This document shows positions 2,912 to 63,078 of a DNA stretch of 64,000 bases, in pieces. The stretch covers positions 6,790 to 70,789 of the forward strand of contig CAYNML010000024.1 in NCBI GenBank assembly GCA_964398185.1, in the 5' to 3' direction. The notes under the pieces were generated by a model, which saw only the letters and a program-made list of their open reading frames with translations, ran no database searches and was not told the origin of the DNA. The stretch's first letter is position 1. The number at the start of each line of letters is the position of its first letter. The translations under genes were made by a program, and so were the position numbers. Origin of the DNA: an uncultured Anaerolineae bacterium. GTDB taxonomy: Bacteria > Chloroflexota > Anaerolineae > Fen-1058.

Positions 2912-3034
2912 CGTCATTGCGAGCGTTTTTTGCGAAGCAATCTCAATTCCAGTCGACGGGAGATTGCTTCGTCGCACGCCCTATCCGCGCTTTGCGCGGG
3001 GGCGCGCATGGCGACAGCGCTCCTCGCAATGACG
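2912..3034. repeat. Palindromic REP/RPE-like element (CGTCATTGCGAG...GAAGCAATCTC...GAGATTGCTTCG...CTCGCAATGACG)
   Basis: Nested inverted repeats read directly. Three more copies lie inside addA and addB. Confidence 0.85.
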
Positions 3035-6222: not shown

Positions 6223-6279
6223 TCGGCCTCCGGGTGAACGGCTGTTGCTCAAACGCAGCACTGAAGGTATCATGATTGC

Positions 6280-35000: not shown

Positions 35001-38000
35001 TGCCGGCCAGGTGTGGACGACCACGCTCACGCCCGCGTCCGAGATGTTGCCGCCCGGTGCACAGAGCACGGTCTTGGCCACCGTTGAGATTCCCGTTGAC
35101 GCGCTGGGCGGACCGACGGCTGTGGCGACAGTCACCACAGCTTATCTGTCGGGCATGACGCCCATCGCTTTGAACACCACGGTGTTGAGCACCACGGCCA
35201 TCCATCATCAACCGGTGCTGGAACCGCCCGCACAAATGAAGGAAAATCCGGCGGGCAGCGTGTGGTCGATCACGTACACCCTGAGCCTCAGCAATGCGGG
35301 CAATCAGACTGACACCTTCGCGCTCACAACCGCCAGCGATTGGGCTGTCGATGCTCCGACGATGCTCGGTCCCCTGGCGCCCTTGTCTGCAACGAACTTC
35401 AGTGTGACAGTCACTGTGCCCATGACGGCTCCGCATGGTACCAGCCACACGGCCATCGTCACGGCCACTTCGCAGGGCGACAGCAGCCGATCGGATGCCG
35501 CTGAGCTAATCGGGGTGGCGCACACCGATTGGATCATCACCAACACCCTGCTCCTGCCCGCGGGCAGCTATCACTTCAACACGCTAACCGTCATGCCTGG
35601 CGGCGATTTGCGCTTACAGAGCAATCCCACTTCAGGCGCAGGCGTCACCATTACCGCGCAGAATGTCACCATCCATCCCGGCGGATCGATCACGGCCAAC
35701 GGTCTGGGCTATCCCAGTCAACAAGGACCGGGGGCGGGCAACTCGGCTGGTTGGACTCACGGTCCAGGCGGCGGAGCTTACGGCGGCTGGGCGGGAAGCG
35801 GCAACGCGGCGGCAGGTGGCTCGCCATACGGTTCAGTGAAGAATCCCCATCAAGCAGGCAGCGGCGGCGGCGCAGGCAACGGTCTGGCGGGTGGCGCCGG
35901 TGGTGGCGCTATTCATCTGATCGTTGGTGAGGCGCTGGTGATCAGCGGGACACTCTCCGCCAATGGTAATTCTGGATCATCTTCAACCTTCGATGCCAGC
36001 GGCGGCGGCTCAGGCGGCAGCCTGTGGATTGAAGCGAACACGTTAAGGGGAGATGGACTGCTGCGTGCCAACGGCGGAAATGGCGGGGCGACAGGCTCCT
36101 ATGCACGCGCAGGCGGCGGATCCGGTGGACGCATTGCTGTTCATTATCAAACTTCAACTTTCAACGGCAGCTATCAGGCGCTGGGCGGAAGCTCGAGTTC
36201 ACAGTATGGCGGGCCGGGGACCGTGTATCTGCACGGATCCAGCGGCAACGGCCAATTGCAGATCGACAATGGCGGCGTCAACTCACTCAGCGCCGGACTG
36301 CTGCCGGACGCATACGAATTTGAGCGCATCATCCAGACACGTTTCGGCCATGGACGCGTCTTGAGCACAACCTCAGTTGTGACAATCAGCAATGAAACCC
36401 TGCAAGGCGATGGAACCTCGACCCTGACCAGTGAAGGCGTGATCGTTGCGCCGACAGAATTCAGCATCAGCGGCACGCTGCTGGCCGTGCAAGGCGACTT
36501 GCGTGGAGTGCAAGCGATCACCACCACCGGCAGTGGCGGACTGGAACTGTATGCGCACACCCCCTGGCGTACGGGGGAGTACACTTTCACGAACATGAGT
36601 GTAGGCGCCGGGACAGTTCTGCGTCTGGTCTCAGCCGATAATGGCAATGCCAACTATAGCGACGATTACGGCGTGACCCTGTATGCCGCTCACGTTTCCA
36701 TTGCACACGGCGGTCAAGTAACAGCCGACGCGCGCGGTTATGCGCAGGCCAGTGGGCCGGGTGCAGGCAGCAGCGCCGCGTGGACCCATGGACCGGGTGG
36801 CGGGGCCTATGGCGGCTGGGCCGGAAATGGCAATACTGCCCCAGGCGGATCGCCATACGGCGGAGTTCTCCAGCCTGCGCGGTTAGGGAGCGGCGGCGGC
36901 AGTGGCAACGGCACAGCCGGCGGCGCAGGCGGTGGCGCCATACACCTGAGCATCAGCGATACCTTGATCGTCAATGGCACATTGGCGGCTGATGGCGGCG
37001 CGGGAGCCACATCCACTTTTGATGCCGGCGGCGGCGGCTCAGGCGGCAGCCTGTGGATTGAAGCCGGAAGGGTGCAAGGCCAGGGCATTATCCGCGCGAA
37101 TGGGGGCAGCGGCGGCGCCACAGGTTCTTATGCGCGCGCCGGAGGTGGATCAGGCGGACGGATTGGCCTCTACTATCAAACCTCCATCTTTACGGGTTCG
37201 CTCCAGGCCCGAGGCGGTGCTTCGGCGGCGCAATACGGTGGCCCTGGAACAATCTATTTGAAGGGGCCAACGGGAGCAGGGGTACTCCAAGTCGACAATG
37301 CCGGCACAAATGGTCAGAGCGCCGCACTGCTCCCCGGCGCGTACCAATTCGATCAAGTGCAGCTCACCAACTACGGCCATCTCACCGTGCAGGGCGATCT
37401 CACTTTGACGGCGAATGTCTTGCAAGGCCACAGTAACTCGCGCTTGACGGTGACGGGCACCCTCACCGCCACGGAAGCCAGCACCTTCCAGAACGCGGCC
37501 ATTGTTGTTCCAGGTCTTCTGGTCGTGTCTGACACCTTGCGCGTCTACACCACCACGGTCGATGTGCCCGGCCAGCTAATCGGAGCCAGCGATCTCCTCA
37601 TCGATCAGCGTGGGCGCGTGCTGCTATATGCTCAATCCTATCCCAGCGGCACGCTGGCGCTGGATGCCGTCGATGTTAGCAGCGGTACGCTGACGTTGAT
37701 CGCCCACGACAACGGCAATACCACTTACACCGACGATACCGGTTTCACGCTGGCTGCCCGCACGATCAGTGTGGGCGTGAACAGCCTGATCGAAGCGAAC
37801 GGTCAAGGCTATGGCACGCAGCGCGGCCCCGGTGCGCACCACAACGGATCGAGTCACGGCGGTTATGGCGGCGGTGCGGCGCCAACCTATGGGTTGGTCT
37901 ATTCTCCGACGATGTTGGGCTCGAGCGGCGATAACGGACGTGGCGGCGGCGCACTGCATGCGATCGTCACCGAGACGTTGACGCTGAACGGTCAACTGCA

Positions 38001-41000
38001 GGCCAACGGCCTGGCCGACGGCAGCGGCGGCTCGATCTGGATCGAAACGCCGGTGTTGACCGGCACAGCGAGTGGTCGCGTGCAAGCCAACGGCGGCAGT
38101 GAAGCCGGCGGCGGCGGCCGTATCGCTTTGTATGCCACCGACTTCAACGGCTTTGCGGGCAGTCTGGCAGCCAGCTTCGGCGGCGGTGTGTGTCCGCTGA
38201 ATCCCGTCACATACTGCGACGGCACGATCTATCTCAACAGCGTCGATCCCTTCGCCTCCACCGTTGAAGCTCAGCCCACCTCGGTGGTTGCGAATGGCGT
38301 TGGGGCCAGCATCATCACGGTGACCTTAAAGAATGTCACCGGTTATCCGGTGGCCAATCAAGCAGTGCAGCTGCTGGTGTTACCGGCCGCCGGGACGCAG
38401 ATCGGCGGACAACCAGCCACTGGCAGTTACCTGACCATCGGCACGTCCAATCTCAGCGGCACGGTGACCACGACGCTGACGGCTACCACGGCCGGACTGC
38501 GCGGCATCGGCGCGCGCGCTGCCAACGGCGCCACAATCTATCAAACCGCGCTGGTGACGTTCACCAACGGCACGGTCAGCCCCGCCCAATCGCGCATCGA
38601 CCTCATCGGCAACGCTACCGCCGCCGCCGATGGATCGGCGGCAGTCAATGTGCGCATCACCGCGCGCGATGCGTTCAGCAACCCTGTCAGCGGCGCGATC
38701 GTGATCCTGACCTCTACCGCCCCGATCAATCTCAATCACCCCGTCGCTCCGACTGATCTCAACGGCCAGACGACGGGCAGCGTTACCAGCACGGTCAGCG
38801 GCCCGGCCGTCGTCGGGGCCATCATCGACGGCGTACTGATCAGCAATACGATCACCGCTAACTTCATCGGCGCCGATCTGGCCGTCACCAAGGTTGGCCC
38901 GGCAGAAGCCACCCCGGGCTTCACCGTCACCTATGAGTTGAATGTCAGCAATCAAGGCCAACTCGCAGCCACGAACGTTGTGCTGACGGATACGCTGTCG
39001 CCCTATCTCAGTTTCATCACGCAGACCAGTCCCTATTCCTTCACGCAGCTGGGCCATGCTGTGATCTGGCAGGTCGGCGTCCTGTCGCCGGGCCAACAAA
39101 GCGCGCTGCAACTGCAAGCGTTGGTCATCACCAGTACGCCCCACTACACGCCCGTTGCCAATCTGGCGGCAGTCCACACGGCGACGACGGAACACAACCT
39201 GGCGAATAACACCGCACAGACCACGGCTTCGACCATTCCACCGACGCCGCGCCTGACCGTCTCGCCTGCCGCGCCGACGCTCATCGTGGATCGCGGCAGC
39301 ACGACGACATTGACGGTGACCATTCGCAATGCTGGCACCGCACCGCTGACCAACGTCGTCGTCAATCCGCCACCGCACATCAACTGGGTCACCGTGGCCG
39401 ATGGAGTAGTCGGCGATATGCCGCCCGGCCAGGTGATCACGGTTGTGCTGCAAGCCGATGCCACCGCTCTGCCGCCCGCCGGTTACTACCGCGACTTCGT
39501 GCGCGTTACCAGCGATAACGGCGGACAACGGCCTATCGCGCTGACGGTGCTGGTGAGTGAGGCCAGCCGCGAGGTCGTGATCACCGTGGTCAACAACGGC
39601 GCGCAGCGTGTGCCTCACGCCGCGGCCCTCATCGATCGTCCGATTCTCGTTGTGACGGAAGGCGTCAGCGGCGTGGAACATGAGTATCAGCGCACGGCGG
39701 CTAATGAGACCGGCGTATTCACGCTGACCCAGCAGCAAGCGGGGTCGTTCGACTACACGCTCACCGCACCCGGCCACCAAACCGCGAATGGCTCAGTGAC
39801 GGTGGTCGAGGGATCAGGCCCGCAGCAGGTCACGTTGATCATGACGGCCACCCCATCGGTGATCTTTACACCGGCCGAGCCGCAGTTGAACGTCGCGCCG
39901 GGCGAGGCCGCGCAGTTGGAAGTGCGCGCGCAAAACGCCGGGGTGCTGCCGTTGACCAACGTTGTCCTGACGTCGACCGGTTCGATCACATGGACGTATC
40001 TGGGCCAGGCCGGTGACGCCGTCTCGCTCGCACCCGGCCAATCCTTCACGCTCACCATCAACGCCACCCCGCCGGAAGACGCCACCCCGGCCATCTACCA
40101 GGACGTGATCGGCCTCAGCGCCGACGGCGGCTTCACCAGGCTGTTGCCGTACGCGGTGCGCGTGTCGCACAGCGCCGTGCGCGCGCTGGAAGTCACCGTC
40201 GTCGATGTGGAAGGCAATCCGGTCCGGCAGGCCGACGTGCAGCTGGTGGCGCAGCAGAGCACGTTGATCATCAGCGGCGCCAACACCAGCACACAGCGCG
40301 AGAGCTATCTCGGCCTGACGGATAACAACGGTCAGCACGTCTTCCCCAACCTGCCGCTGGGCGACTATCACTACGATGTCGGCGTGCAGGGTTATCAAGC
40401 GGCCACCGGCGCGCTCGAGGTGATCGCCGGGACGGGCGTGCAGACGCACACCATCCACGTCCCGCAGCCTGCGTTGTCGATCAACTGGTCCGTGGAGCCG
40501 ACGCCGTTCGAGGATGTGTACACGGCCACGCTCAGCCTGGTCTTCGATCCGAACATCGTCAAGCCCAACCTGGGCTGTGCGCCGCTGGAAGCATGTTTCA
40601 GTCATACGAATAACATCCTGGAAATCCACAACTTCTATCCGGTCACCATCACCAACGCCGAGATTGAGATCACCTTCGACTGCGAAGTGTTCTACAACCC
40701 CATTCTGGGCGACATTCCGCCGAACGCGACGGTGCCCGTGACGCTGACTTTTGGCACAGGCTGCTGCACCGGCACGGTGCCCTGCTCGGAACCGGCCAAG
40801 CGGCACGCCGGACAAGTACATCTGACCGGCGAATATAACCACTTGATGCGCGCGTCCATGTACAACATCAGCGCGGTGCAGCCGCCCAGCCAGATGACGC
40901 CCGGCAGCCTGTACACCGTGCCGCTGCATCTGGTGAACGAAGGCTTCCCGGCTGATGGCAATCTGTTGGGCGATCCGCTGCCGATCGAGAATATTCACCT

Positions 41001-44000
41001 GAACCAGCCGCCGGTGCTGACCTTCATCACCGTCTCGCCCACGCACATCTCAAGCCTGGCCGTCGGCGCGGAAGCCGACATCGAACTGCAGGTGGAAGTG
41101 CCGCAGTGGCTGCCGCAGGGCGTGTACGCCGACGCGATCGTGATCACTTCGACCGACGGCATCTCGACGGTGCTCGAAATTCTGGCCGAGATGTCCGCCG
41201 ACGGCCTGACGATCGAGACGCAGTTTGTCACACCGCTCCGTCCGGGTGAAGAACCGCCGGGCGGCGGCCACCCCGGCGGCGGACAACCACTCGTTCCGCC
41301 GTGGTGGCAGCCGCCGCAATACCCGGAAGAGAACGAGCCGATCGAGATGACGTTCAACTTCTCGCGGGTCTGCTGTCGCGATTGCCCGAAGGATCCGGTC
41401 TACACGTGGGGGCGCGTCGGCGGCACGCTGGTCGTGCAAGCCTACGGCGGCGGCTGGCATTACACGCCGCACTTCAAAGGCGGGCTGGTCTATCTGGAGA
41501 TCGTGCAGCGCATCTCGCTGGAACGGGAAGCCTTCACGGCCAAGATGATGTTGTCCCACGCCGGCGGCTTGCCGGTGGAAGACATCAACGTAGACATTCT
41601 TGTCACCGACGACGACGGGCTGTCGTGGATCGTCGAGCCGGGGCAAGGCGTGGGCGGCTTCCTGATCACGCCGACGATTCCCACAACCCTCACGAACATG
41701 GTGTCCGGCACTCAGCAAGCCGCCATGTGGACCCTGGTGCCTGACGGCCTGAACATCACCGAACCCCAGGGGCGCAAGTTCTACGTGCAAGCGTTCATGA
41801 GCTACAAGGTAAACGGCGTCACCTACAACTTCGAGACGCAGCGCGAGACGATCACGGTGATGCCGCAGCCCTTCGTCTTGATCGACTACTTCATCCCGCG
41901 CTACGTCTGGGCCAACGAGCCGTTCAAGATCTGGATCATGGCCACCAACCTCGGCTGGGGAGCGGCCAAGAATTTGAAAGTTGACAGCGCGCAACCCCGC
42001 ATCGTGCGCAACGACTCCGGCCTGCCGATCAATTTCGAGATCATCAGCGATCTGCTCGTCAACTTCGGCACGCTGGCGCCGGGCCAGACCGAGACGCGCT
42101 TCTGGTCGGTGGTCGCCAATCACGATGGGACCTTCATCGACTTCAAGGTCGCCTGTACGCACGCCAACTATCGCGGCCTGCCGCTGTCCGATCTGATCTG
42201 GTGCAACCCGCGCGGCAACTACCTGGAAAATCCGCCGCCCAACTGGGCCAAGGAAGATCAATGCCTGGTCAGCAATACGCAGGGCTACAGTGAAGATCCG
42301 GTCAGCACGCTGAGCGGCAACTTCACCTACAACACCACCGATGTGTCCATTCCCACCTGGGGCGATCCGCTAATGCTGGAGCGTTCGTACAATGCGCTCG
42401 ACGTCGGCGATGGACCGTTCGGGCCGGGCTGGACGCACAACTACAACTCCTCTCTCACCTACCGCAGCTTCATGCCCATCAGCGGCGGGGCGCCGGTCAC
42501 GACGCCGCTGAATACCATGCAGATGAAGGCCCCGCGCGGTTCGCTGCTGTTCTTCAAACTGAACCCCGACGATTCCTTCACCGCCATGCCGGGCGTCAAA
42601 GGCACACTGACGCGCACGCTGGGCACCTATACCGTGACGCTGCCCGATCAGCGCAAGTTCGTCTACAACGCCGATCAGTGGCTGACCCAACAGATCGATC
42701 CCAACGGCAATGCCCTGACCTTGACGTACGATGGGCAGGAACGATTGACGCACATTACCGATCCAGCCGGGCGGTCGTTGAGCTTCGTCTACGACGATAA
42801 CGATCACATCGTGCAGATGACGGATCCGCTCAATCGGGTCACGCAGTACGGTTACGATGCGGCGGGCTACCTCACCACCGTCACCGACACGCTGGGCCTG
42901 GTGACGCGCATGACGTACGTCAGCAGCTACGGCATGCGCCGCCTGCAAAACATCATCGATCCCAACGGCCACCTCGTCGTCACCAACCACTACGACACGC
43001 GCGGGCGCGTCGTGCGCCAGCTGGACGGCGCGGGTCACGAAACGCGCTTCACCTACGGCAACCAGGTCACCACCATGATCGGCCCGCGCGGCGACGCCAC
43101 GCAGGACTACTACGACAACGAAGGCCGCCTGATCAAGCGCGTCGATGCGCTGGGCTACACCGAGCTGTACGAATACGACAGCAACAACAACCGCACCGCC
43201 TACACCGACAAGAACGGCCGCCGCTCGCAGTTTGTGTGGGACGGTCCCGGCTGCAACATGAGCGCCGTGATCGATCCGGCGGGCAACACCACGCAGTTCA
43301 CCTACGATGAGCGCAACCGGCCCACCAGCCAGATCGATGCCTTGGGCCACACCCTGCGCTTCACCTACGGCCCCTACCTGGACCCGATCGCCGTAACCGA
43401 TCCGCTGAGCCGCACCACAGTGCGCGCCTACGGCGGCCACGGTGAACTGCTGAGTGAGACCGATGCGGCCAATCGCAGCACGGCGTATGGCTACGATCTC
43501 TACGGCAACCAGACCGTGATCACCAATCCGTTGGGGTATGCGCGGCGCATGGACTACGATGCCGGCGGGCGCGTGCTGCACACCACCGATGAGCTGGGCC
43601 GCGTCACCACGTTGGTCTATGACGCCGCCGATCGGTTATTGCAAGCCACCGGGCCAACCGGCCTGAGCGTCTTCTATGAATACGACGGTGTGGGCCAGCA
43701 GACGGTCGTCACCGACACGCTGGGCCGCGTCACACGCTTCGGCTACGATGTGCTCAATCGGCCGGTAACCATCACGGCCAGCTACCAGGACGGCGTCTTC
43801 GATCCGGCGCGACCCGACGAGGACCTCATCACCCTCAAGCGCTTCGACGCGGCCGGTAACCTGATCGCCGAAACCGACGAACTGGGCCGCGTGACGCGCT
43901 ACGGCTACGACCTGCTCAACCGCCTGATCACCACCACCAATCCGCTGGGCTACACGCAGATCTACACCTACGACGGCGTGGGCAACCGCCTGGCCGCAAC

Positions 44001-47000
44001 GGATGCCGCCGGGCACACCACACACTACGGCTACGATCTGCTCAATCGCAAGATTGCGATCACAGACACCCAGGGCCACGTGACGCGCTACGCTTACGAT
44101 CAACTGGGCAACTTGATCACGACGACGAATGCGCTCTCGCAGACCACCGTCACGTGGTACGACGCCCTCAAGCGCCCGCTGACGGTGACGCTGAACTACG
44201 TCGATGGCGTGTACGATCCCGCCCGACCCGCTGAAGACGTCACGACCGTGCAGCGGTATGATCTCGCCGGCGACCTGGTCGAACAGATCGATGCGCTGGG
44301 CCGCGTCACACGCCTCACTTACGACGCGCTCGGTCAAGTGCTGACCGCCACCGATCCGTTGTCCCACACCGTCAGCAAGACCTACGATGCCATCGGGAAT
44401 CTACTGACTTCAACGGACGCCAACGGCCACGTCACACAATACGCTTACGACGCGCTCGATCGCGTGAGCACGCTGACTGATGCCTTGAGTGGCACCGTCC
44501 GTTACGGTTACGATGCCGCCGGGCACGTCATCAGCACCACCGATGAACTGGGCCGCACGACCCTCACGCAATACGATGCGGTCTATCGGCCTGTGACGAC
44601 GACGTACAACTTTGTCGATGGGGTCTTCGATCCGGCGCGGCCCGACGAAGACGTGATCACCGTCAAACGCTATGACGCCGCCGGCAACGTCGTCGCGGCG
44701 ATCGATCCGCTGGGTTACGTGACGCACTACGCCTACGACGCCCGCGATCTGGTCATCACCACGACCAACGCCCTCTCCGGCACGTCACGCTTCACCTACG
44801 ATCGGGTGGGCAACCGCCTGACCGACAGCGATGCCGCCGGGCATGTCATCACCTACGGCTACGACTCGCTGTATCACGTCGTCGCCATCACCGATCACCT
44901 GGGTTACGCCACCACCTTCGGCTTCGATGCGCTCGGCAATCGCACGATTGTCACCGATGCGCTGGGCCGCGTCAAGCGGATCGAATTCGATCGCCTGAAC
45001 CGCCCGGTGACGACGACGTTCAACTATCACGACGGGGTCTTCGATCCCGCCCAGCCCGATCGGGACGTGGCGACGATTACGCGCTACGACGGCGCGGGCA
45101 ACGTCGTCGCCGAGATCGATCCGTTGGGGTATGAGACGCACTACGCCTACGACGCGCTGAACCGCCTCATCACCACCACCAACCCGTTGTCGGGCACCAT
45201 CGTGCGCGGCTACGATGCGGTGGGCAATCAGATCGTCGTGACCAATGCCAACGGCTTCGCCGCGCACTTCACCTACGATGCGTTGCGGCGCAATACGCAG
45301 ATCGTCAATGCGCTGGGCGAGGTCACCACCTTTGCCTATGATGCCGCGGGCAATCAGATCACCATCACCGATGCGCTCAGCCGCACCACGCACTACGCCT
45401 ACGATGGACTGGATCGCCCCATCACCGTCACCAATCCATTGACGGGCACCACCGTCTATGTCTGGGATGCGGCCAGCAACCAGCTCGCCGTGATCGACGC
45501 GGCAGGGCGGATCACGCGATCGGGTTATGATGCGCTCCAGCGGCTGATCGCCCTGACCGACACGCTGGGGAACGTGACGCGCTTCGGCTACGATGCGGTC
45601 GGCAATCAAACCGTCATCACCGACGCCAACGGTCACGTCACGTCCTTCGGCTACGACGAATTGAACCGGCAGGTGGTCATCACCGATCCGTTAAACGGCA
45701 CGACCACCTTCGGCTACGATGCCGTGGGCAATTCCGTGCTGACCATCGACCCCGAAGGCCGCGCCACAGCTTTTGGTTACGACGAACTGGATCGCAACGT
45801 CGTCATCACCGATGCGTTGGGCAGCGTGGCGTATCACGTCTACGACGCGCGCGGCAGCGAACTGCAGCAGATCGATCCGGAAGGCCACATCACGCGCACG
45901 GACTATGACGCGCTGGGCCGCGTGGTCACCGTGACCGACGCGTTGAGCGGCACGACGGCGTTCACCTACGATCCGCTCGGCAACGTGATCCGCCAGATCG
46001 ATGCCGCAGGGCGCGTGAGCACCATTACGTATGACGCGCTCAATCGTCCGCTGACCGTGACCGATCCGTTGACGGGAACGACCCTTTATCGCTACGACGC
46101 CGTCGGCAACCTCATCACCACCAGCGACGCGGAAGGCCGATCACGCTGGATGGAGTACGACGCGCTCAACCGGCCGATCAAGCTCACCGATCCGTTGAGC
46201 GGCACCACGACCTTCGGCTACGACGCCGTGGGCAACCTGCTGCGCACGACCGATGCCGAAGGCCACACCACGCACACCGCTTACGACGGACTGAATCGGC
46301 CGATCGTGATCACCGATGCGCTGCAGCACAGCACGCGCACCACGTACGATCCGGTTGGCAACCGCCTCAGTCTCGTCGATGCGCGCGGTCACACCACCAC
46401 CTTCGCGTACGATGCGCTCGATCGGCTGGTGCAGACGACCGATCCGGTGAGCGGCACCACCGCCTTCGGTTACGATCGCGTGGGCAACCAGACCGTCATC
46501 ACCGACGCCACCGGCCGCGCCGTCCACCTGACCTACGACGCCGTCTATCGCTTGAGCGCGCAACGCGATGCGCTGGGTCACACCACGCGCTACGCCTACG
46601 ACCGCATCGGCAACACCGTCTTGATCACCGACGCCGCCGGCATCGTGGTGCGCCACGAATACGACGCGCTGAGCCGCCTCGCCGCCGTGATCGAAAACTA
46701 CCGCCCCGCACTGCCGGCGAGCGCCGACACCAACGTGCGCACGGCCTACGGCTACGATCGCGTCGGCAACCGTACTGTCGTCACCGATGCCAACGGCCAT
46801 GCCACACGCTACACCTACGACGCCCTCGATCGTCAGACCGACATCGTCGATCCGCTCAATCACGCCTATCACTTCACTTACGATCAGGTCGATAACCTGA
46901 TCGCGCGGCGCGATCCCAACGGCCAGACGATCACCGTCACCTACGACGCCCTCAACCGCCCGATCGTGCTGCGCTATCCCGATCAGCTGGTGGCGCTGGC

Positions 47001-50000
47001 CTACAACCGCGTGGGCAGCCGCGTGGCCATGACAGACAGCCTGGGCGCCACGCACTACCACTACGACGCCCTACAGCGGCTCACGGCCACGCTCGATCAA
47101 AATGGCCGTGCGGTCACGCACGCCTACGATGCCGTCAGCAATCGCGTGGGCCTGGGTTATCCCGGCGGGCAGGTGGTGACCTACACCTACGATCTGGCCG
47201 ATCACATGATCGGCGTCACCGACTGGGACAACCAGACGGCGGCCTATCAATACGACGCCGCCGGACGTCCACTCACGGCGACGCTGCCCAACGGCGTGCT
47301 GAGCGTGTTCACCTACGACGCCGCCGGACGCCTGATCCAGATCGAGCACCGCACCACCGATCGGGTGTTGGCGCGTTACGAGTACGAACTCGATGCGTTG
47401 GGCTATCGCGTGGCCGTCACCGAAACGGTGAATCCACCGCAGCCGCCGCGCGCCGGGTTCTATGCTTTGCCGTTGGCAGGCGTCACACCGCTCACGGTCA
47501 CGTTTGCCAACACGTCCACCGGCAGCATCACCACCCAAACGTGGAACTTTGGCGACGGCTTCACCAGCACGCTCGCCAATCCGGTGCATCGTTACGATGT
47601 GGCCGGAACCTACACCGTCACGCTCAGCGTCAGCGGCGCCGGTGGCAGCGATGTGATCACGCGGCCCGCTTACATCAACGTGTTTAGCAGCACCACCGGG
47701 CCGGTGCTGTTCTTCGACGACGCCGAGTCCGGCAGCAGCAAGTGGATAGCCGAAGGGAGTTGGGCCGTCTCCAACGAGGCCGCACACTCCGGCACGTTTG
47801 CGTTCTCGGATTCGCCGGGCGGCAGCTATGCGCACGAGTCCAACGCATCACTCACCTCTGCTTATGCCATCGCGCTGGCGCATGAGGCGCCCGCCCGCCT
47901 GGAATTCTGGGACCCGATCGAGCTGGGCGCCGGCGATCACGCCCTGGTCGAAGTCTCAACCGACAACGGCCAGAACTGGACGCCGTTGATCGATCGCGTC
48001 GCTGTGAGCAACGTCAGCTGGACGCGGCACACGGCCGATCTCTCCGCGTACCAGGGTCAATCCATCCGGCTGCGCTTCCGCCTGGACGCGCGGCAAGATC
48101 CGGCGGTGGGCGACGGTTGGCACATCGACGATGTGTTGATCACCACTGCGCCGGAACCGATCTACGCCCTGCCCTTCAACGATCCGGCTGAGACGTTGAC
48201 GAACTGGATCGCGGAGGGCAGCTGGGGCTTGAGCACGGCGCAGCCGTACACCGGCGCCGCGGCGTTCGCAGACAGCCCGATCGGATCTTATGGAGCTCAA
48301 TCGAGCGCGGCGCTGGAACTGAACGGGCCGCTGAATCTGGCGGGCGCGACGACGCCACAGCTCACCTTTGTCGATCAGATCGATCTCGCGGCCGGGGATG
48401 CCGCCTTCGTCGAGGTCTCAACGAATAACGGCCAGACGTGGACCGCCGTCTTCACACATACCTCCGGTACACAAGCAAGTTGGACCCCGCGCACGATCGA
48501 TCTACGCAGCTACGGCGGCCAGCTGATCCGGCTGCGCTTCCGCCTCGCCTCAGCCGCCGATCTGCAAGTGGCCGACGGCTGGCGCATCGATGCGATCTCG
48601 ATCACGAACACGGCGCCGTCATATCACATCTATCTGCCCCTGGTGCAGCGTACAGCCGCAGCGGCGAGCGCCGCGCCGCAGCCAGCTTCACGCGCGCCCG
48701 TCGCGCCGTTCGATCCGGCGACGTTGCTGCTGGCCCCGGCGGCCCTGGCCGCCGTCATCGGGCGCAGGTCGCGCCGCTGGGCAGGCTTCATTGGCCTCCT
48801 CGCATTGATCCTGGTGGCTGTGGGCCTGAGCTCCAGCCTGGCCAGCGCGACGCCGCTGGCGCTGCCGGGCCGCTCGAGCGCGGTGAGCCGATCGGATGTG
48901 CCGACCAACGCGCAGCCGCAAGCTTCCTACACGCGCGTAACGCGTTACACCTACGACGGGCTGCATCGCCTGATCGGCGCGACCGATTCTATGGGCGGCG
49001 TATATACCTACACCTACGACGCCGTGGGCAATCGCTTGAGCGCCAACGAAGCAGGCGTGAGTACCGTCTATACCTACGATGCCGCCAATCAACTCACCTC
49101 CGTCAACGGTGTGCCTTACACGTGGGACGCCAACGGCAATCTGTTGAATGACGGGCGACGTACGTTCACGTATGACGCGGGCAATCGCCTGACGCAAGTC
49201 ATCACCGGCGCGTTGACGATCGGTCAACGTTACAGCGGCGATGGCGTGCGCAAGGAACAACTGATCAACGGCGTGCCGATCCGTTACACGCTGGACGAAG
49301 CAACCGAGCTGCCCAATGTGCTGGAGGAGCAAGGCACACAGGGCGATGTGCAGTATCTGTACGGGCTGGGACAGCTCGCCGTGCACACGGCGGCGGGTTG
49401 GGTGTATCAGCTGGGCGACGGGCTGGGCAGCGTGCGCCAGCAAGTGGATGCGGCGGGCGAGGTGGCGACGACGCGGCAGTATGCGCCGTTCGGCCAGATC
49501 GAAGCGCAGGCCGGAGCGGGACAAGGTTCGTTCGGGTATGCGGGCGAGCAGCTGGATACGGCCAGCGGGTTGATCTTCCTCCGTGCGCGTTACTACGATC
49601 CGGCGACCGGGCGCTTCATCACCCGCGATCCGTATCCGGCGCAGGCCGCCGTGCCCGGCACGCTGCATCGTTACGCCTATGTCGGCAACGATCCGATCAA
49701 TCAGATCGATCCGTCGGGGTTGTACAGTCAACTAACGCGATCGTCCGGTTATTCTGATGGCCGCCTGCACCGCGCGAGCAGCCGATCAAGCGGCGTGCGC
49801 GGCGGCCTGTATGCGCGCACACGCGGTATCTACGCGGGCATGTACAGCCAGGCGTATGGCATCGGCGACAGCATGTCGATCTCGGCGGGCGGACGCACTT
49901 ACCGGCCGCCCAGCGCGGGCCGTCCTTACAATCAGCGGCAGGTGGCTGAAGATCGCGGGCGCGCGATCGATCAGATGAACCAGGAAGCGCGCGACGGATC

Positions 50001-54155: not shown

Positions 54156-57100
54156 TTACACGTCTTCTACCTGCACTTCGTTTTTCACGCGCAGAAACAC
54201 CAATTGCCCACGCGGGCGTTGGCCGATCTGCGGCGCGATCGCTTCGATGTAGCGCTGCACTTGCTCAGCATATTTCTCGTGCTCGATTGTAGCACGCATC
54301 TCTTCGATCGATCTTACTTCGTCCGTCTTGAAATCGACGATCGTCCAGCCATCGCCCGATCGATAGAGCAGATCGATCACGCCCGTATCGCCGGGCAGAG
54401 CATAGGGAACTTTGTGCAGCCGATCGGCCTTCTCAACTTCTTCGTACAACGGGTGCGCCTGAAACCGTCGCAGCATCCGGCGCACTTCGTTAATCGTCGC
54501 CTGAATCTCGGCGTGATCGGTCAAGCCCGCTTCCAAAGCGAAGGGCAGCAGAAAGGCGTCGAAGTTGTCGGAGTCGGGAAAGCGCCAGCGGCGCAGCGCT
54601 TCGTGTGTCAACCGCCCGACGACCCACGCCGGCCCGACGGGCCGTTGGGCCTTTGGCACAACGCGCCAAACCTTCGATTGCGGATTTTGGATTTTGGATT
54701 GCGGATCAAGGTGGAGCGCTGCAACGACCAGTTCAGGCGGTTGCAGGATGCTGGCCGATCCGCTTACCGTCTCGGCATTAGTTCGAATCGCTCCAACTTC
54801 CTCTGGCGGATACAACACACACCCAAGCGGTTGACTGAGTTCCACGCGACGCGGCGCGGTGAGCTCGCCATCAATCGTGATGGCATCCAGCCCGACGACT
54901 TCACCCAATCGTCTTAACCAACCACTCAACGTCAGCATATGCTTGGAACTGATCTTGGCGTGTCCGCTGACGATCAATTTTTCTTTGGCGCGCGTGGCGG
55001 CGACGTAGAGCAGGCGTTTATCTTCGGCGTCGTCTTTGGCTTGCTCGTTCAGCCGGGCCAGGCGATAGGCCACCGGATGTGCGCCGTCCGCGTCGGTCAG
55101 ATCGATCTGCAAGCCGAGGTGATCGTCGAGCAGCACTTTGCTGGCACGATTGGGCATTTCGTGCGCGGCGTCGGCGATGACGACGACGGGAAATTCCAGA
55201 CCTTTCGCTTTGTGGACCGTCATCAACTGCACCGCGCCCTCGGCGGCGACGGGCGCTTCGCCTTCACGCACGCCGGTATCTTCCAGCGTCTGCACGTATT
55301 CCAGAAATTCGCCGAGGCTGATCAAGCGGCTGGCGTGCGCGTCGACCAACAGCTTATCGACGTTGCGGCGCAGGCGATGGCCCTGCGGCACAGCGCTCAA
55401 CAGCGTGCGATAGTGCGTCGCGTCGAGGAAGCGCTTCAGCACCTCGGCCACCGACACGCGCCCGGCGAGATCGTGCAGTTCGGCAATGAGGTGATAGGCG
55501 TCACTGCGAGCGCTTCCCAGCGAAGCAGTCTCAGTGTGCCCTGATGAGATTGCTTCGCGCTCCGCGCTCGCAATGACGGACAGATTTTCCCACAATGAAC
55601 GCGGCTGATCATCGTTGGCGAAACGCAACCGATACAGATCAGCATCACTCAGGCCAATGGCTGGCGAGCGCAATAAACCCGCGAGGGCCAGATCGTCGGT
55701 GGGATCGTGGATGGCCGCCAACGCATTGAGCACATCACGGATCTCCGGTCGATCGTAGAAGCCGCGTCCGGCGATGGTCACGAAGGGAATGCCCGCCCGT
55801 TCGAGGGCGTCTTCGTACACGCTAAAGCCGCTGCTGGCGCGGAACAGCAGCGCCATGTCACTCCACGCAAATTCCTCGGCGCGGTGCAAAGCGTGCAAGC
55901 GCTGGGCCAGAGCGGTCGCGGTGGCTTCACGTCCAGTGGCGGCATCCTCGCCCACGCCGAGATGAAATTCCACAAAGGGTGCGCACACGGCTTGTTTTTC
56001 AGGCTGTTTGCGCTGGGCGCGCAATTCGGCAAAGGGCACTTCGTAGGGCTGCGTCAGATCAGCGGCTTCGCCCAGCACGGGACGCAGCAGATCGTTGAGA
56101 TTCTGCACCAGCGGTTGATGCGCGCGGAAAGTGAGATCGAGATCGACGGTAAGGCCATTGGCGGCTTGAATATCCGCCTGCACTTGCCGGAAAACGCTCA
56201 CGTCCGCGCCGCGAAACTTATAGATGCTCTGTTTGGCGTCGCCGACGATGAAGAGTTCGCCCGCCGAGGATGCCGTCATTGCGAGGAGCGCTTTTTGCGA
56301 CAAAGCAATCTCCTGCGGTTGGAACTGGGATTGCTTCGCAGACAGCGCTCGCAATGACGGAGCGGGCGCGAAACCCGTCAACGCATACACGATGTCGCGC
56401 TGGCGGGCATTGGTGTCTTGAAATTCGTCGACCAGCACCGCCTGCACATCATGTTGCCAACGTTCGCGTACCGCGGGCTGTGTCGTCAGCAGCTGGGCGG
56501 CGCGGCCTTCCAGATCGTCAAAGTCGAGCGCGTGCTGTGCGTCCTTCAATTGATCGTATTCCTGCAAGACGCGAGCGTGCAGTTGTTGCAGCGCGGGCAG
56601 AGCATCGGCCAGTTGTCGATCGAGCGCAACATTCAACGAGCCTTCCGCGCCGATCAACGGCTTGAGTTCCTCGTCGTAGTGATCGCGCAAGACGCGCATG
56701 GCTTCACGTGCGGTTTCCAGATCGGCGGCGTCCCAGTTGGCTTTTTGTCCCTGTGTGGAAGTTGCCTTGCGAAGTTGCGACAGGCCGTTGAAGAGCGTGG
56801 TCCAATCGGATGCAGTACGAGCCGCCGAGACTTCGCGCCAGCGATCGAGCACGGCGCGGCGCGCGGTCTCCAGTTTGTCGTCGGCGCTGCGCGATCGAAG
56901 TTCGGTCAGCGTGTTTAAAGCGTCGCGCCATTGATCGGTCAGGTGTTCGTCCAGCCAGCGAGTCAGTGCGTCTGCGAGGTGTGTTGAGGTTGACCACACC
57001 GCCGCCACATCGAGCCGCTTTTCGATCAGCGTGCCGAGAATGTCACGCAGGCCGCCTTCGGTGAAGAGGCCGATGAGGGGCGCGAGGTCCGATCGGGTGG

Positions 57101-57590
57101 CCGCCCACGCCAGCGCGGCTTCGATCGCCTGCGCCTGCCACGCGGCCGCCTGGCCTTCTTCCAACACAGCGAAGTTGGGATCGAGTCCGGCTTCGGCGGG
57201 ATGCGTCCTGAGGACCTCGGCGCACAGGCTGTGGATGGTGCTGATGCGCGCCGCGTCGAGCTCGGTGAAGGCGCGCTGCCATATTTGCTCGGCGACCGCG
57301 TCTTCGCGGTCGGCCCCACCCGCGAGGACGCGGGCAGGGAGCATCAAGCGGCGTTGAATCTCGATACGGATGCGCGTCCGCATTTCACGCGCAGCCTTGT
57401 CGGTGAACGTGATGGCGACCAGCGAGCGCAGCGGATGGCCCTGTTCCAGCAGATGCAGGTAGCGCCCGACGAGCACGCGCGTCTTGCCGGAGCCGGCGCC
57501 CGCCGTCACCGCAATGGCGCGGCTGCGGCGCGTGGCGGCCTGCTTTTGATCGGGTGTGAATGTGAATTGAGTGAGGATGCTGCTATGCAT
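54156..57590 (-). CDS. addA: AddA/UvrD-like SF1 helicase with C-terminal RecB-family nuclease
   Basis: AGAGSGKT, AITFTDKAAREM, STIHSLC, VLVDEFQDTN, IVGDAKQSIYKFRGAD, MTVHKAKGLEFP, RLLYVAATRA and GVIDLL...VDFKT. Confidence 0.85.
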   Translation of the reverse strand: MHSSILTQFTFTPDQKQAATRRSRAIAVTAGAGSGKTRVLVGRYLHLLEQGHPLRSLVAITFTDKAAREMRTRIRIEIQRRLMLPARVLAGGADREDAVAEQIWQRAFTELDAARISTIHSLCAEVLRTHPAEAGLDPNFAVLEEGQAAAWQAQAIEAALAWAATRSDLAPLIGLFTEGGLRDILGTLIEKRLDVAAVWSTSTHLADALTRWLDEHLTDQWRDALNTLTELRSRSADDKLETARRAVLDRWREVSAARTASDWTTLFNGLSQLRKATSTQGQKANWDAADLETAREAMRVLRDHYDEELKPLIGAEGSLNVALDRQLADALPALQQLHARVLQEYDQLKDAQHALDFDDLEGRAAQLLTTQPAVRERWQHDVQAVLVDEFQDTNARQRDIVYALTGFAPAPSLRALSAKQSQFQPQEIALSQKALLAMTASSAGELFIVGDAKQSIYKFRGADVSVFRQVQADIQAANGLTVDLDLTFRAHQPLVQNLNDLLRPVLGEAADLTQPYEVPFAELRAQRKQPEKQAVCAPFVEFHLGVGEDAATGREATATALAQRLHALHRAEEFAWSDMALLFRASSGFSVYEDALERAGIPFVTIAGRGFYDRPEIRDVLNALAAIHDPTDDLALAGLLRSPAIGLSDADLYRLRFANDDQPRSLWENLSVIASAEREAISSGHTETASLGSARSDAYHLIAELHDLAGRVSVAEVLKRFLDATHYRTLLSAVPQGHRLRRNVDKLLVDAHASRLISLGEFLEYVQTLEDTGVREGEAPVAAEGAVQLMTVHKAKGLEFPVVVIADAAHEMPNRASKVLLDDHLGLQIDLTDADGAHPVAYRLARLNEQAKDDAEDKRLLYVAATRAKEKLIVSGHAKISSKHMLTLSGWLRRLGEVVGLDAITIDGELTAPRRVELSQPLGCVLYPPEEVGAIRTNAETVSGSASILQPPELVVAALHLDPQSKIQNPQSKVWRVVPKAQRPVGPAWVVGRLTHEALRRWRFPDSDNFDAFLLPFALEAGLTDHAEIQATINEVRRMLRRFQAHPLYEEVEKADRLHKVPYALPGDTGVIDLLYRSGDGWTIVDFKTDEVRSIEEMRATIEHEKYAEQVQRYIEAIAPQIGQRPRGQLVFLRVKNEVQVEDV
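54675..54707. repeat. In-frame heptamer repeat (GATTTTG/GATTGCG units) encoding PQSKIQNPQSK in addA
   Basis: CGATTGCGGATTTTGGATTTTGGATTGCGGATC. Confidence 0.75.
55499..55578. repeat. Palindromic element copy, in frame within addA
   Basis: CGTCACTGCGAG...GAAGCAGTCTC...GAGATTGCTTCG...CTCGCAATGACG; encodes VIASAEREAISSGHTETASLGSARSDA. Confidence 0.85.
56274..56359. repeat. Palindromic element copy, in frame within addA
   Basis: CGTCATTGCGAG...AAGCAATCTCC...GGGATTGCTTCG...CTCGCAATGACG; encodes SLRALSAKQSQFQPQEIALSQKALLAMT. Confidence 0.85.
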
Positions 57591-57658
57591 GCGTGGCCGC
57601 GTCTATCCTTGTAGAATCGGTGTATAATTTTCATAGACCGATAGTAAGGCGGACAATC

Positions 57659-57991
57659 ATGAGCGACTTAACGACTCGCACTACGGCAAAACGACTCAAT
57701 ACCCTGGCGCAGCTCTACGAGCGTGGTCAGACCAGTCCATTGTTGGATCGGGCGCTGGCTAAAGCGCTGACGTATGAGGCTGCCGTGTCACGCCAGCAGC
57801 TGGAGCAATTGCAGGCCGATCTGGCCGAACTGGAACAACGCTATGGACTATCGTCGGCCGAGTTTTACCAGCAATATCAAGCCGGCCAGACAGATGATCA
57901 ACTTGATTATACGGAATGGGCCGCGCTGCTCCAGATGGCGAATAACTTGCAAGAACGGCTGCGGTTGCTGGCCGACGCCGAACGTCCATGA
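57659..57991 (+). CDS. Probable antitoxin of a type II TA pair
   Basis: LEQRYGLSSAEFYQQYQAGQTDDQLDYTEWA pattern; ATGA overlap with the downstream toxin; TATAAT at 57623. Confidence 0.7.
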   Translation: MSDLTTRTTAKRLNTLAQLYERGQTSPLLDRALAKALTYEAAVSRQQLEQLQADLAELEQRYGLSSAEFYQQYQAGQTDDQLDYTEWAALLQMANNLQERLRLLADAERP

Positions 57992-58371
57992 CTGCCGCCG
58001 ATTATTTGGAGTCGATCAAAGCCCGTCTGTTGAGCGACCCCCTCATCGCTGCGTTCCAGATCGTGCGTGAACGCAGCACTTCCTTTGACGGTTATCTGCG
58101 CGCCAGAGTGACGCTGTTGGACGACAGTCACCTTGAATTCGCCGAATACTTCACCGTTGCCACAGATGATCAGATTGCGGTGGTGACTTACAATTACCAC
58201 TGGGCTGCGCCGCATGGCGGCCTGATTCAGCGTTGGGATAATACTCCCCATTATCCCGGTCTGCCCAACTTTCCCGATCACACCCATCTGGCCGACACGG
58301 CTGAACCACTCCCGGCTGAACCACAGAATATCTTCGCTGTATTGGATGAAATTACCAAACGTTTGTCATAG
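57988..58371 (+). CDS. DUF6516/TumE-like toxin of a type II TA pair
   Basis: YNYHW...IQRWDNTPHYPGLPNFPDHTH motif. Confidence 0.7.
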   Translation: MTAADYLESIKARLLSDPLIAAFQIVRERSTSFDGYLRARVTLLDDSHLEFAEYFTVATDDQIAVVTYNYHWAAPHGGLIQRWDNTPHYPGLPNFPDHTHLADTAEPLPAEPQNIFAVLDEITKRLS

Positions 58372-58374
58372 CCG

Positions 58375-61300
58375 CTAGAAGGCTTGTGGCGTATATCTCC
58401 AGCAAAACGCGACGGCGGGACAATAGCTTGGACACCCGCCATCGGGTGGCATGGGGTGGAAATCGCCCGAGCGAATGTGCCGCACGTGATCGACGACGTG
58501 CTGCTTGACTTGATCAAAAGCGGCCCCTATGCCGTCGGGATATTTTTCCAACTTGAAGCTGCTGGCCTCGCCGCGCAAGATGTGCCAGTAGAAGCCCGAG
58601 GCAACTTTGCCAAGTCCCAGCGCCTCTTGCGCGGCCAGCGCGTACAACGGCAGTTGCAAGCGTTTGCCTTTCTCCAGATCCTTCGCGCTGATGGCTGAGC
58701 CGCTGGCCTTGTAATCGATCACGCGCAGACGACCCTGCTGATCCACATCCAGCCGATCGATGTAGCCGTGCAAGCGAATCTCTGCGCCATCGCCGGCGCG
58801 CACGATCAACGACGGCTGCCCCATGCCAAACCTCTGCTCGAAGTAACGCGGCGTAAATTCGGCTGAAACTTCGGCCAGTGCTTCAATCGTGAGGCGTAAC
58901 TTCTCTTCCAATTCACGCTGCTGCGCGTCCCACAATGCGCCCGGTCGGAAGCCGTAATCGATCGGAGCGGTAGCGAACACCGCGCGCGCGATAGCAGGCA
59001 GGGCGCTCAACGGATCGTCGTGTTGATACACGTCTTCCAGAATCTTGTGCAGCATCGAACCGAGGATGCGCGCATCGTAGCCTGCTTCCGGCGGCGTGCG
59101 CGGCTCCAGTTGCAGCGCGTGCGCGATGTAAAATGCAAACGGGCACGTGCCGTACATTTCCAAGCGGCTCGCGCTCCAGCCGTGCGCGGCGGAGTAGCGT
59201 TGCTGCAAGACGTCAGCCAAGTGCGGCAAGACGCCTTCATGCTCGCCGGTCGCTTCGTCGGCCAGTCGAGCCTGCAAGACTTCGAGGCGGTGCTGTAGGT
59301 GCTGATCAAATTGGCGCGCGGCCTGCACCCACTCGATCGGCGAAGCGGCTTCCTCAGGCGACAGATGATCTTCGGGGCGCACTTTGCGCACGATCGGGCC
59401 GCTCGTGCCGAGCGGTTGATCGAACAACTTCAGCACCTGCGACCAATACGGCGATGGTTCCCACGGCTGACCGTCGGGTGCGAGGTACGGTCGGGTGAGC
59501 AGCAACCGATCGGACGCGCGGGTGATTGCTTGATAGAAGAATGTGATCTCGTCGCCGCGCAGCTTGGGTTCGATCGCCAGGCCTCGATCGCGCAACACTG
59601 CCCGATCGGTTTCACGCAGCAGCACGGCTTCGCGCTCGGCCTGCGGGAATTCGCCTTCCGCTAAACCCAACAGCGCGACGGCGCGAAACGACAGGCCGCG
59701 CGCATCGAGCGCCGAGGCGGTGAACACCCCGGCCCCCACCCTTGATCCCTCCCCCGTTTCACCGGGGAGGGGATCATACGACATCGCTTCAAGCGCGCCA
59801 CGCAGTTCATTCACGAACGCGCGATAATCGATCGGTTGTGCTTCGCCGATCGTGGCGTCACTCAACACCAGGCCGCGCAGGGCATCTTTGCAAGCCCGCA
59901 GCGCCGCCACATCGCGCGCGGCGGTGATCGGGTTTTGCAGGACACGGGCCGCAACCCCGATGCCGGTCGTCTCGACTTCGCCAATCAAATCCTCGACGAA
60001 CGCGGCGTAGTCGCGGATGGTGGCCTGCGGCTCAGGCATGATGGCCGCCGTGAAGGCTTCGAACTTTGCCTGCAATTGCCGCACTTCTTCAGGCGCAAGC
60101 CATTCGGCGGAGGTATCCTCGTCGTCGATGAGCGCACCTTCGGCGCGCGGTTGGCCCAATGCCTCAAACGCTGCTTGCCATTGCTCCAACCCGCCGATCA
60201 CGCGCGCGGCGCGGGTGAGCGTGTCCAACTGCGCCGCATCGTGATCCGTAATGCCCTGCGCCGACCAGTCGAAGTACGGACTGCGCCACGCTTCCAACAC
60301 CTGACGGCGCGGCCAGTCGAGCACGGGCAGCGACAACAGCGACAACAGCGCGGCGATGGCGGGATTGTCGATCAGCGGTGCGCCGCCGATCAGTCGCAGC
60401 GGCACGCCAAACTCGGCGGCGACTTCGAGCAGGAACGGGCGGTAGGCTTCAAGGTTGCGCGCGAGGATGGCAACGTCGTCGATCGACATGCCGTCGATCA
60501 CGATCCGCTGTTTGATCCAGCGCAAGGCCGCGCGAGATTCTTCGGAACGGTTCTGGGCCTCGATGAATTCAACGGATTGCTGATTGCTGATTGCTGATTG
60601 CTGATTGCGAAGCGTTCCTGCGCGACTCTCAAACAGCGCACTTTCGAGCGCAGCTAATTCCGTGGAGCGCGTCGTTGCGAGGAGCGTTGTGTGCGACGAA
60701 GCAATCTCACCATCGGGCAGAAAGAGATTGCTTCGCAAACTGCGCTCGCAATGACGGGCGGTGGGCAGCGCTTCCGGTGTGATGTGCAGGTGATCTATCA
60801 ACGCTCGCCGCGCGCGATTGAAACGGCGATGCGCGAGACGCGAACGGGACAGATCGCCGGTGAGGGTGATGATCGTTTCCTGCGCGCGCTGCGCGAGAAT
60901 CGTCAGCACGCCCAACTGCGTGGGGTTGAATTCGTCGAAGCCGGTGACGATGAGCAGGCGCGTGTCAGTGCCGAGGTCAGGTTTGTTTTCCAGCGCAATG
61001 GCCGCCAGCCAGCCTTGCCCTTCGGCGTCGGCCCAGTCGTTGCGCTGGAGCCAGTCTTGATAGGCGGTGTAGATCGCAGCGAGTTCTTCCAGTCGCAGGC
61101 CAAGTCCGAACACCGCGCCGTGAAATGCAATCGGATAGACACGGGCCCGTTTGAGTTCTTCGATGGTATCGCGCAGCAAGGCGATGAAGCCCGGTTTGGC
61201 GCGCAGGGCGGCATAATACGGCAATTGCCCCGTGTCGCATAGTTGATCGATCACGCGGCGCAGCAGGCGAATCTGCAACGGATCGGTCAAGCGGGCGCGG

Positions 61301-61536: not shown

Positions 61537-61562
61537 AGTAACGCCTAGAACTTCAGCAAGCG

Positions 61563-61751
61563 CTATTCACTGGCCGCATTCATGATGACCTCGAATACAT
61601 TGAGGTCATCGTCGTTGGGATTGAAGTCTTTTTCCAATGCGCGCATGCGGCGCGTTGCAGCCGTGCGCGTCGTATATGCCTCAACCACCGCGATGATGCC
61701 GCGTTGCACGAATACAACGACCCAGACAGGTTGGGGGTTCTTCTCATTCAT
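61563..61751 (-). CDS. Small hypothetical protein (62 aa)
   Basis: GAGG RBS; fills the gap between the endonuclease and addB. Confidence 0.55.
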   Translation of the reverse strand: MNEKNPQPVWVVVFVQRGIIAVVEAYTTRTAATRRMRALEKDFNPNDDDLNVFEVIMNAASE

Positions 61752-61775
61752 GATCAGCGCCTCAGTGTGTGTAAA

Positions 61776-63062: not shown

Positions 63063-63078
63063 ACCGTTCTCCTCGGTA

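Follow-up and report, generated by a model that had tools for sequence, protein, structure and literature searches.

How an RHS shell that has been exported through the Sec pathway stays on a cell without an outer membrane, and how it encloses and then frees its toxin, is a question posed by a giant RHS protein encoded in a 64,000-nucleotide stretch of DNA from an uncultured Anaerolineae bacterium (contig CAYNML010000024.1 of assembly GCA_964398185.1, positions 6,790 to 70,789; hereafter the window, the coordinates of which are used throughout). The protein consists of 7533 amino acids (aa) and is encoded on the forward strand by the open reading frame (ORF) 29056-51657, as are all of its features described below. 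An insert of ~499 aa (47431-48927), delimited by alignment with canonical RHS proteins, lies between two consecutive YD repeats of the shell and ends in two hydrophobic segments joined by a basic loop. This insert is best read as a lineage-specific membrane-tethering and processing module in a shell loop. A sequence-only reading of this DNA had proposed that the first segment stops transfer and anchors the N-terminal part, while the second restarts export and may be cleaved, so that the RHS core and the toxin would form a separate chain. Every element that it named is present in the frame of the ORF and was placed correctly to the base.

Whether the insert interrupts a single shell can be judged from homology. 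In an alignment of 52 sequences, comprising aa 5700-6893 of the window protein and 51 RHS proteins, ~40 canonical RHS proteins from many phyla contribute only 0-2 residues to the columns that contain 480 residues of the window protein, and the flanks of the insert align to the consecutive YD repeats '..YxLDxxGNRxxxxE' and 'xxxYxYDxLxRLTxA'. The last N-side strand, ALGYRVAVTETV (aa 6114-6125; 47395-47430), and the first C-side strand, YTRVTRYTYD (48928-48957), therefore belong to consecutive repeats of one shell, which bears out what had been proposed for them. In addition, the C-side fragment (aa 6624-6891) aligns as a single unit to the final ~270 shell residues of solved structures, namely the teneurin-like protein 9pt5/9ifo (residues 1876-2145), which is its best sequence match in the PDB, RhsA (7q97, 980-1289) and RhsP (8h8a, 880-1151). 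In an AlphaFold2 model the YD sheet reaches a predicted local distance difference test (pLDDT) score of ~97 on both sides of the insert. Foldseek searches with this model find RHS shells, with the best global superposition on the TcdB2-TccC3 / YenB/YenC type, and the TM-scores are low (TMq 0.41-0.44) because the model represents a partial shell with the insert. On the strength of homology, rather than of a measured contact, the two flanking strands are predicted to lie adjacent to each other in the shell.

In the order of its parts, the insert looks as if the C-terminal end of an exported surface protein had been joined to the signal peptide of a following one. It opens with a PKD domain (47485-47679) that matches Pfam PF18911 with 52.8 bits and PF00801 with 34 bits, as well as PKD domains in the PDB. 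Two MAM-like domains of the 'choice-of-anchor' family follow, the first of which (47731-48141) is a MAM-like or choice-of-anchor J domain (NF038128, 52.5 bits in two stretches; InhA-like MAM), while the second spans ~48190-48620 and has its matched core at 48403-48603 (Reelin_subrepeat-B, 45.9 bits in two stretches, and the second stretch of NF038128). Downstream of these domains lie the YLP-box IYLPLVQR (aa 6525-6532; 48628-48651) and an Ala/Pro-rich linker (48652-48720) with a conserved F-D-P cap at its end, which leads into segment 1, TLLLAPAALAAVIG (48721-48762), a short, Pro-kinked hydrophobic stretch and putative stop-transfer or sorting-domain-like anchor. The basic loop RRSRRW (48763-48780), which is proposed to face the cytoplasm, separates it from segment 2 (48781-48840), the hydrophobic core of a proposed internal signal peptide. 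Segment 2 is followed by A-S-A (48841-48849), a statistically weak candidate signal peptidase I site read from the sequence, where a cut would precede TPLALPGR, and a polar linker of 26 aa (48850-48927) runs back to the shell.

The hairpin formed by the two segments is a conserved feature, since protein and contig surveys recovered ~32 distinct RHS proteins or loci that carry it in the same loop. All of the carriers that come from named genomes are Chloroflexota, including Thermoflexales, Anaerolineae, Anaerolineaceae, Ardenticatenaceae and unclassified members of the phylum, and an N-terminal signal peptide is also present in at least four of the hairpin-bearing relatives whose N-terminus is intact. 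The ortholog in an independent Thermoflexales metagenome-assembled genome (MAG; locus L001) is collinear and gap-free across the whole insert and shares 77% identity overall; segment 1 reaches 94% identity and segment 2 drops to 56%, a pattern that fits a sequence-specific anchor combined with a signal-peptide core that is constrained only in its chemistry. Furthermore, a Pro is present inside segment 1 in every relative, and an Asp directly precedes this segment in most of them. Lysine and arginine residues average 4.6 in the ~8-residue loop of the relatives as compared to 0.9 and 0.8 in the 15-residue flanks, and thus the hairpins obey the positive-inside rule to which the sequence-only reading had appealed. 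We consider a hairpin topology in the membrane of the producer to be likely. A search of 5.8 billion proteins with a profile of the hairpin alone (A3) found nothing at E <= 10, and as it missed the known members too, it is uninformative on hairpins outside RHS proteins.

Segment 2 contains the most hydrophobic 19-residue stretch of the 7533-aa protein, above that of the N-terminal signal peptide, and it has the layout of a type I signal peptide, with RRSRRW as the n-region, a hydrophobic core of 16-20 aa and SSSLASA as the c-region, where small residues occupy positions -3 and -1. The relatives extend this resemblance: in 12 of the ~32, a canonical lipobox (LAAC, VAAC, VSAC or AAGC) closes the hydrophobic core and is followed by a Pro/Thr-rich tether, just as ordinary lipoprotein precursors have a tether directly behind their lipobox. 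When the lipobox is defined as [LVI][ASTVI][GAS]C where the hydrophobic core ends, six of the first 22 hairpins contain one versus 0.54 expected, and none of 2000 composition-preserving shuffles reached this number (0/2000); the Cys content of the hairpin-bearing proteins is 0.38%. Members of the main lipobox group retain the lipobox despite free variation of their basic loop. The combination of lipobox and tether is hard to explain unless segment 2 is processed. Segment 2 of the window protein is without a lipobox. Most of the other relatives have A-x-A-like endings, such as TALA (in several), TAFA and AMASA; the corresponding residues are LASA in the window protein and A-V-A in the L001 ortholog.

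The part of the insert that precedes segment 2 is reminiscent of protein sorting signals. Segment 1 has the design of a C-terminal sorting domain, with a short hydrophobic stretch, kinked by Pro, between an Asp/Pro cap and an Arg cluster (here RRSRR). Together with the Arg cluster it gives sub-threshold matches to the MYXO-, PEF-, JDVT- and Synerg-CTERM sorting domains. Matches below the cutoff to CTERM domains were also obtained with other relatives, and the same region of two of them (L086 and L110) passes the Synerg-CTERM model TIGR04564 with 25.9 and 24.5 bits, respectively (cutoff 22.5). The YLP-box scores 17.4 bits with NF053834 (cutoff 10) and 16.6 bits with NF050076 (cutoff 15), and that of the L001 ortholog passes the models as well. 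This box is catalogued as a putative sorting motif that normally occupies the extreme C-terminus, and one of its models is named 'ultrashort_CTERM'. In one of the surveyed proteins (P0105) it stands at the true C-terminus, whereas in the window protein it is internal; likewise, segment 1 is followed by ~960 residues and is not at the extreme C-terminus, so that both motifs lie ~960-1000 residues from the end of the protein. Free-standing C-terminal anchors like segment 1 were not found in ~1 Mb of related Chloroflexota loci, where the sole match was an ordinary LPNTG signal. It belongs to a 307-aa ORF of an Anaerolineales locus (L006, from 3981 on the + strand) that ends with the LPNTG motif, a hydrophobic stretch and a basic tail, indicating that sortase-type sorting exists in this lineage alongside the YLP-box. 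Within the window, a neighbouring secreted protein of 1552 aa (20861-25519), which carries InlB B-repeat-like, LamG and pectate-lyase-like beta-helix domains, displays the YLP-like sequence VQLPLVSD right behind its predicted signal-peptide cut (..FLPALA|VQLPLV..); this sequence yields no score with the NCBIfam YLP-box models.

The mechanism that we favor, to which we give about an even chance, starts with a protein that Sec would export from the N- to the C-terminus by means of its N-terminal signal peptide. Transfer would be stopped ~6550 residues later by segment 1 together with the Arg cluster, and segment 2 would then re-enter the translocon as an internal signal peptide and restart the export of the last 935 residues. 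The outcome would be a two-helix hairpin in the cytoplasmic membrane, tied by two linkers of ~25 aa to adjacent strands of the shell, which would thereby be tethered to the membrane of the producer. Signal peptidase I would probably cut after A-S-A, and in a sister clade the lipobox would be the site of lipidation and cutting by Lgt and Lsp. Two chains would then make up the shell, a large membrane-anchored body and a ~290-aa closing piece that holds the aspartyl-protease core and, until autoproteolysis, the toxin. A role of this arrangement in the opening of the shell is speculation, and the shell held together solely by strand complementation and the release step of the sequence-only reading are inference. 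An extended version, which we regard as tentative and rather unlikely, treats the RHS cocoon as a secretory polyprotein. At segment 2 it would be processed by signal peptidase I or II, and a sorting enzyme might in addition act on segment 1 or on the YLP-box; the products would be a body anchored in the membrane or the wall and a separately tethered lid with the protease core and the toxin. The toxin would be freed by dissociation of this lid instead of passing through a channel.

Several observations weigh against the favored mechanism. Segment 1 comprises only 14-16 aa with a central Pro, is marginal on two hydrophobicity scales (below 1.6 on the Kyte-Doolittle scale over 19 residues), and in the window protein it falls below every sorting-domain cutoff, the best being MYXO-CTERM with 14.4 bits versus 20. 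On its own, the segment is a marginal transmembrane stretch. The hairpin itself is modelled by AlphaFold2 as two helices (aa 6556-6570 and 6576-6587) with low confidence and a pLDDT of only ~30. The 12 lipobox cases fall in ~4 sequence groups and thus do not represent 12 independent events. In addition, A-x-A motifs after segment 2 are not significantly enriched (14 observed versus 10.2 expected, p ~0.06) in what is an Ala-rich context, and therefore the case for cleavage in the window protein rests on analogy with the lipobox clade. The signal-peptide character of segment 2 is supported by the lipobox Cys and the Pro/Thr tether of the 12 relatives. The A-S-A of the window protein is weak evidence, and we give cleavage of this particular protein by signal peptidase about an even chance. 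Moreover, hydrophobic stretches in the toxin region would complicate Sec export, and none of the genes within the window encodes a sortase, exosortase, rhomboid or signal peptidase.

The shell loop that houses the hairpin is an insertion hot-spot in this RHS lineage in general, as judged from the surveyed sequences. The sequence-only reading had overlooked this, as well as the catalogued status of YLPLVQR and the likeness of segment 1 and the Arg cluster to sorting domains. The hydrophobic segment is absent in 126 of the 142 junctions of this loop type, and the same loop can instead accommodate YLP-like boxes that are followed by Pro/Thr linkers of 100-200 aa (P0145, P0171, P0180 and P0201), PKD pairs (P0020, P0068 and L003), a MAM-like domain (L007) or a helical domain (L012). 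Tandem arrays of two to three orphan cassettes, each composed of a short YD part, an RHS core and a toxin and each starting around the same shell loop, are located downstream of the main RHS gene in an Anaerolineaceae MAG (L012, 4520-12572), a Thermoflexales MAG (L047, 3790-10052) and two other loci (L003 and L041). Some of these cassettes carry a loop insert, either a Pro/Thr linker with a helical domain or, in L047, a hairpin remnant. In the Chloroflexota MAG Tumba.bins.32 (L058, 9488-11786), a Pro/Thr linker, a hairpin, a short YD part and a core are present, the 9.4 kb upstream being devoid of an RHS shell gene, and there is an apparent frameshift between the YD part and the core. Since orphan cassettes start at this loop and hairpin cassettes occur without a shell gene, the insert travels with the exchangeable C-terminal cassette.

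Such cassettes bear directly on a quite improbable alternative, according to which the hairpin is a junction scar or a cassette signal, that is, a gene end fused to a gene start by toxin-cassette recombination, which matters only when the C-terminal cassette is expressed alone and uses segment 2 as its signal peptide. The arrays of orphan cassettes that begin around this loop, the hairpin cassette without an upstream shell gene in L058, the remnant in L047 and the other inserts that the loop holds elsewhere all agree with this explanation. However, a two-gene version with a stop codon between segments 1 and 2 was encountered neither among the 142 junctions nor among 80 metagenome loci, and in none of the ~32 hairpin cases. 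An internal translation start is also hard to find in the window, where no in-frame ATG precedes segment 2 and the only candidates, TTG and GTG, are without an obvious Shine-Dalgarno sequence. Finally, segment 1 would be useless in a stand-alone cassette, and yet it is more conserved than its surroundings. An assembly or frameshift artefact that fused two unrelated genes is suggested by nothing other than the unusual size of the ORF, and its probability is next to nil: the same architecture recurs in ~32 independent contigs, and the composition along the window shows no break at the insert, the break being further downstream, in the toxin region. The collinear, gap-free ortholog in the independent MAG (L001) excludes it.

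The explanation that comes closest to the favored one retains the topology and dispenses with the cut. A permanent, uncleaved hairpin anchor would tether a single-chain shell, with A-S-A being incidental, and it draws on the same topology evidence, on an A-x-A frequency that does not exceed what the composition predicts, and on relatives without a clear cleavage motif (P0058, P0149 and the L058/L127/L148 group). We hold it to be unlikely, because a mere anchor would need neither the lipobox Cys and Pro/Thr tether, which are kept across diverged members of the clade, nor a hydrophobic stretch of only 15-20 residues before the Cys. Hydrophobic helices on Rhs effectors serve delivery, and the hairpin could by the same token be a target-membrane device that inserts into the membrane of the victim for toxin delivery, like the N-terminal transmembrane domains of prePAAR Rhs proteins; the toxin region, with Gly/Ala-rich hydrophobic stretches of its own, would suit such a function. 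This is very improbable in our view, given that the protein has an N-terminal Sec signal peptide and a strongly hydrophobic hairpin would partition into the membrane of the producer during export. The N-terminus, where LamG and MAM domains follow this signal peptide, lacks a PAAR domain next to transmembrane domains; neither the window genes nor the domain searches revealed a PAAR or chaperone gene, and the lipobox variants point to the lipoprotein machinery of the producer.

Apart from the insert, the giant protein has the organization of an exported surface RHS protein. The gene call exists also in a version that is 15 codons shorter (P0127). The N-terminal Sec-type signal peptide (29056-29154), with KR, a hydrophobic core and ALSASA, was read from the sequence, and its cleavage is presumed. 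It precedes ~4400 aa with LamG, MAM, carboxypeptidase-regulatory-like, Ig-like and DUF11 domains. In this stalk, three long Gly-rich repeats, e.g. GGGGSGGSLWIEA.. and NGGNGGATGSYARAGGGSGGRI, occupy 35400-38200 (aa ~2150-3050); they look like a beta-helix or filament module, and no Pfam match was reported for them. The shell begins with DUF6531, the usual start domain of RHS shells (aa 4414-4470; 42295-42465; Pfam PF20148, 51.7 bits), continues with the N-side YD repeats (42466-47430, ~1650 aa, pLDDT ~97 for the modelled part) up to the strand that borders the insert, and resumes after it with the C-side YD repeats and the RHS-associated core (48928-49722; pLDDT 91-98 as means of 10-residue blocks). 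The core (49480-49722) matches TIGR03696 with 78.3 bits (cutoff 32.5) and is closed by the candidate autoproteolysis motif DPSGL, of the DPxGL type (aa 6885-6889; 49708-49722). The YD repeats score 82.9 bits with Pfam PF05593 and 59.3 bits with TIGR01643, and under a strict definition of the motif 12 of them lie upstream and three downstream of the insert. Without the insert, the shell of ~1975 aa is far longer than ordinary Rhs shells. The motif DGV[FY]DPA[RQ]P.[ER]D occurs four times in the N-side shell, at aa 4912, 5050, 5188 and 5326 (43789-45072; aa 4912-5339), and its exact spacing of 138 aa points to a tandem super-repeat of 414 nt by which the shell is lengthened. Domain searches found no cell-wall, S-layer, LPXTG or PAAR domain in the protein (for PAAR, in aa 1-4500 and 6019-7533) and no anchor domain besides the hairpin. 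The hallmarks of metazoan teneurins, namely an N-terminal type II transmembrane helix, EGF repeats and an NHL propeller, were not found either, only the YD shell being matched.

The C-terminal toxin region (49723-51654) comprises 644 aa, in which hydrophobic stretches rich in Gly and Ala (aa 7012-7047 and 7087-7105), which recall membrane-active Rhs toxins, are followed by a terminal domain with a low guanine-cytosine (GC) content; the region has no match in Pfam or the PDB. Over 50750-51650 the GC content drops from ~63% to ~50%, and it does not recover in the 306-aa gene directly downstream (51679-52599, + strand), a candidate immunity protein by its position and lowered GC content. The two together would be as expected for an acquired toxin/immunity pair. 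The flanking genes encode sugar metabolism, AddAB-like helicase-nucleases and a methyltransferase. Further downstream, on the opposite strand (54156-63963, -), the AddA/AddB-like helicase-nuclease pair is accompanied by a DUF6996/DUF6997/DUF7226 protein and a D12-class adenine methyltransferase, and this stretch may be a restriction or defence neighbourhood.

Among known systems, the closest structural analogue is the TcB-TcC cocoon (TcdB2-TccC3, PDB 4O9X; YenB/YenC, 4IGL), in which two polypeptides build one RHS shell with a continued beta-sheet and both the aspartyl-protease core and the toxin belong to the C-terminal chain, as they would to the proposed closing piece. The Tc chains are split ~680 residues before the cleavage site, compared to ~290 here. 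They are encoded by two genes or joined as artificial fusions, are not membrane-anchored and do without signal peptidase, whereas the window protein is the product of a single ORF. The Rhs effectors of the type VI secretion system (RhsA, 7Q97; Rhs1, 7PQ5; RhsP, 8H8A; Tse5, 8CP6) have the same shell, RHS core and DPxGL cleavage, and their fragments stay associated; however, they fold in the cytoplasm, cut themselves at the N-terminal plug and the C-terminal core and ride on VgrG/PAAR, while the extra cut in the window protein would be made by general secretory peptidases inside a shell loop. The CTERM domains (Synerg-CTERM TIGR04564, MYXO-CTERM and PEP-CTERM) combine a short Gly/Pro-containing hydrophobic stretch with an Arg cluster as segment 1 does, which here is internal.

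Sec-exported surface RHS proteins of monoderms, such as WapA, and bacterial teneurin-like proteins (TLPs) likewise combine an N-terminal signal peptide for signal peptidase I or II with a surface-anchored shell and a C-terminal toxin. WapA of S. suis is one such protein (PMC12704120). For attachment, the proteins of this group rely on lipidation at the N-terminus, on S-layer domains or on domains that bind the cell wall (PMC13018210). No second signal peptide and no membrane hairpin within the shell has been described for any of them, and neither feature is described in the 2012 survey of polymorphic toxins. Similarly, the open-access literature yielded no paper on the YLP-box, no internal signal peptide in Rhs proteins and no hairpin in Rhs proteins of Chloroflexi. 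The processing logic is shared with viral polyproteins, such as the glycoprotein precursors of bunyaviruses and pestiviruses, which are cut at internal signal peptides by the signal peptidase of the host (PMC7926653, PMC3113308). In these, too, a stop-transfer segment and an internal signal sequence allow signal peptidase to separate two ectodomains, but they are processed in the eukaryotic endoplasmic reticulum, contain no bacterial toxin, lack a lipobox variant and are not cut within one folded domain.

To conclude, if the favored reading is true, a body and a lid generated by signal peptidase would provide a concrete and testable opening mechanism for RHS shells. It would also be, to our knowledge, the first bacterial case in which an internal lipoprotein-type signal peptide processes a polyprotein, none having emerged from a limited literature search. 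Furthermore, the module sets two poorly understood sorting motifs of Chloroflexota, the YLP-box and the CTERM-like anchor, in a defined structural context in which their function can be tested.

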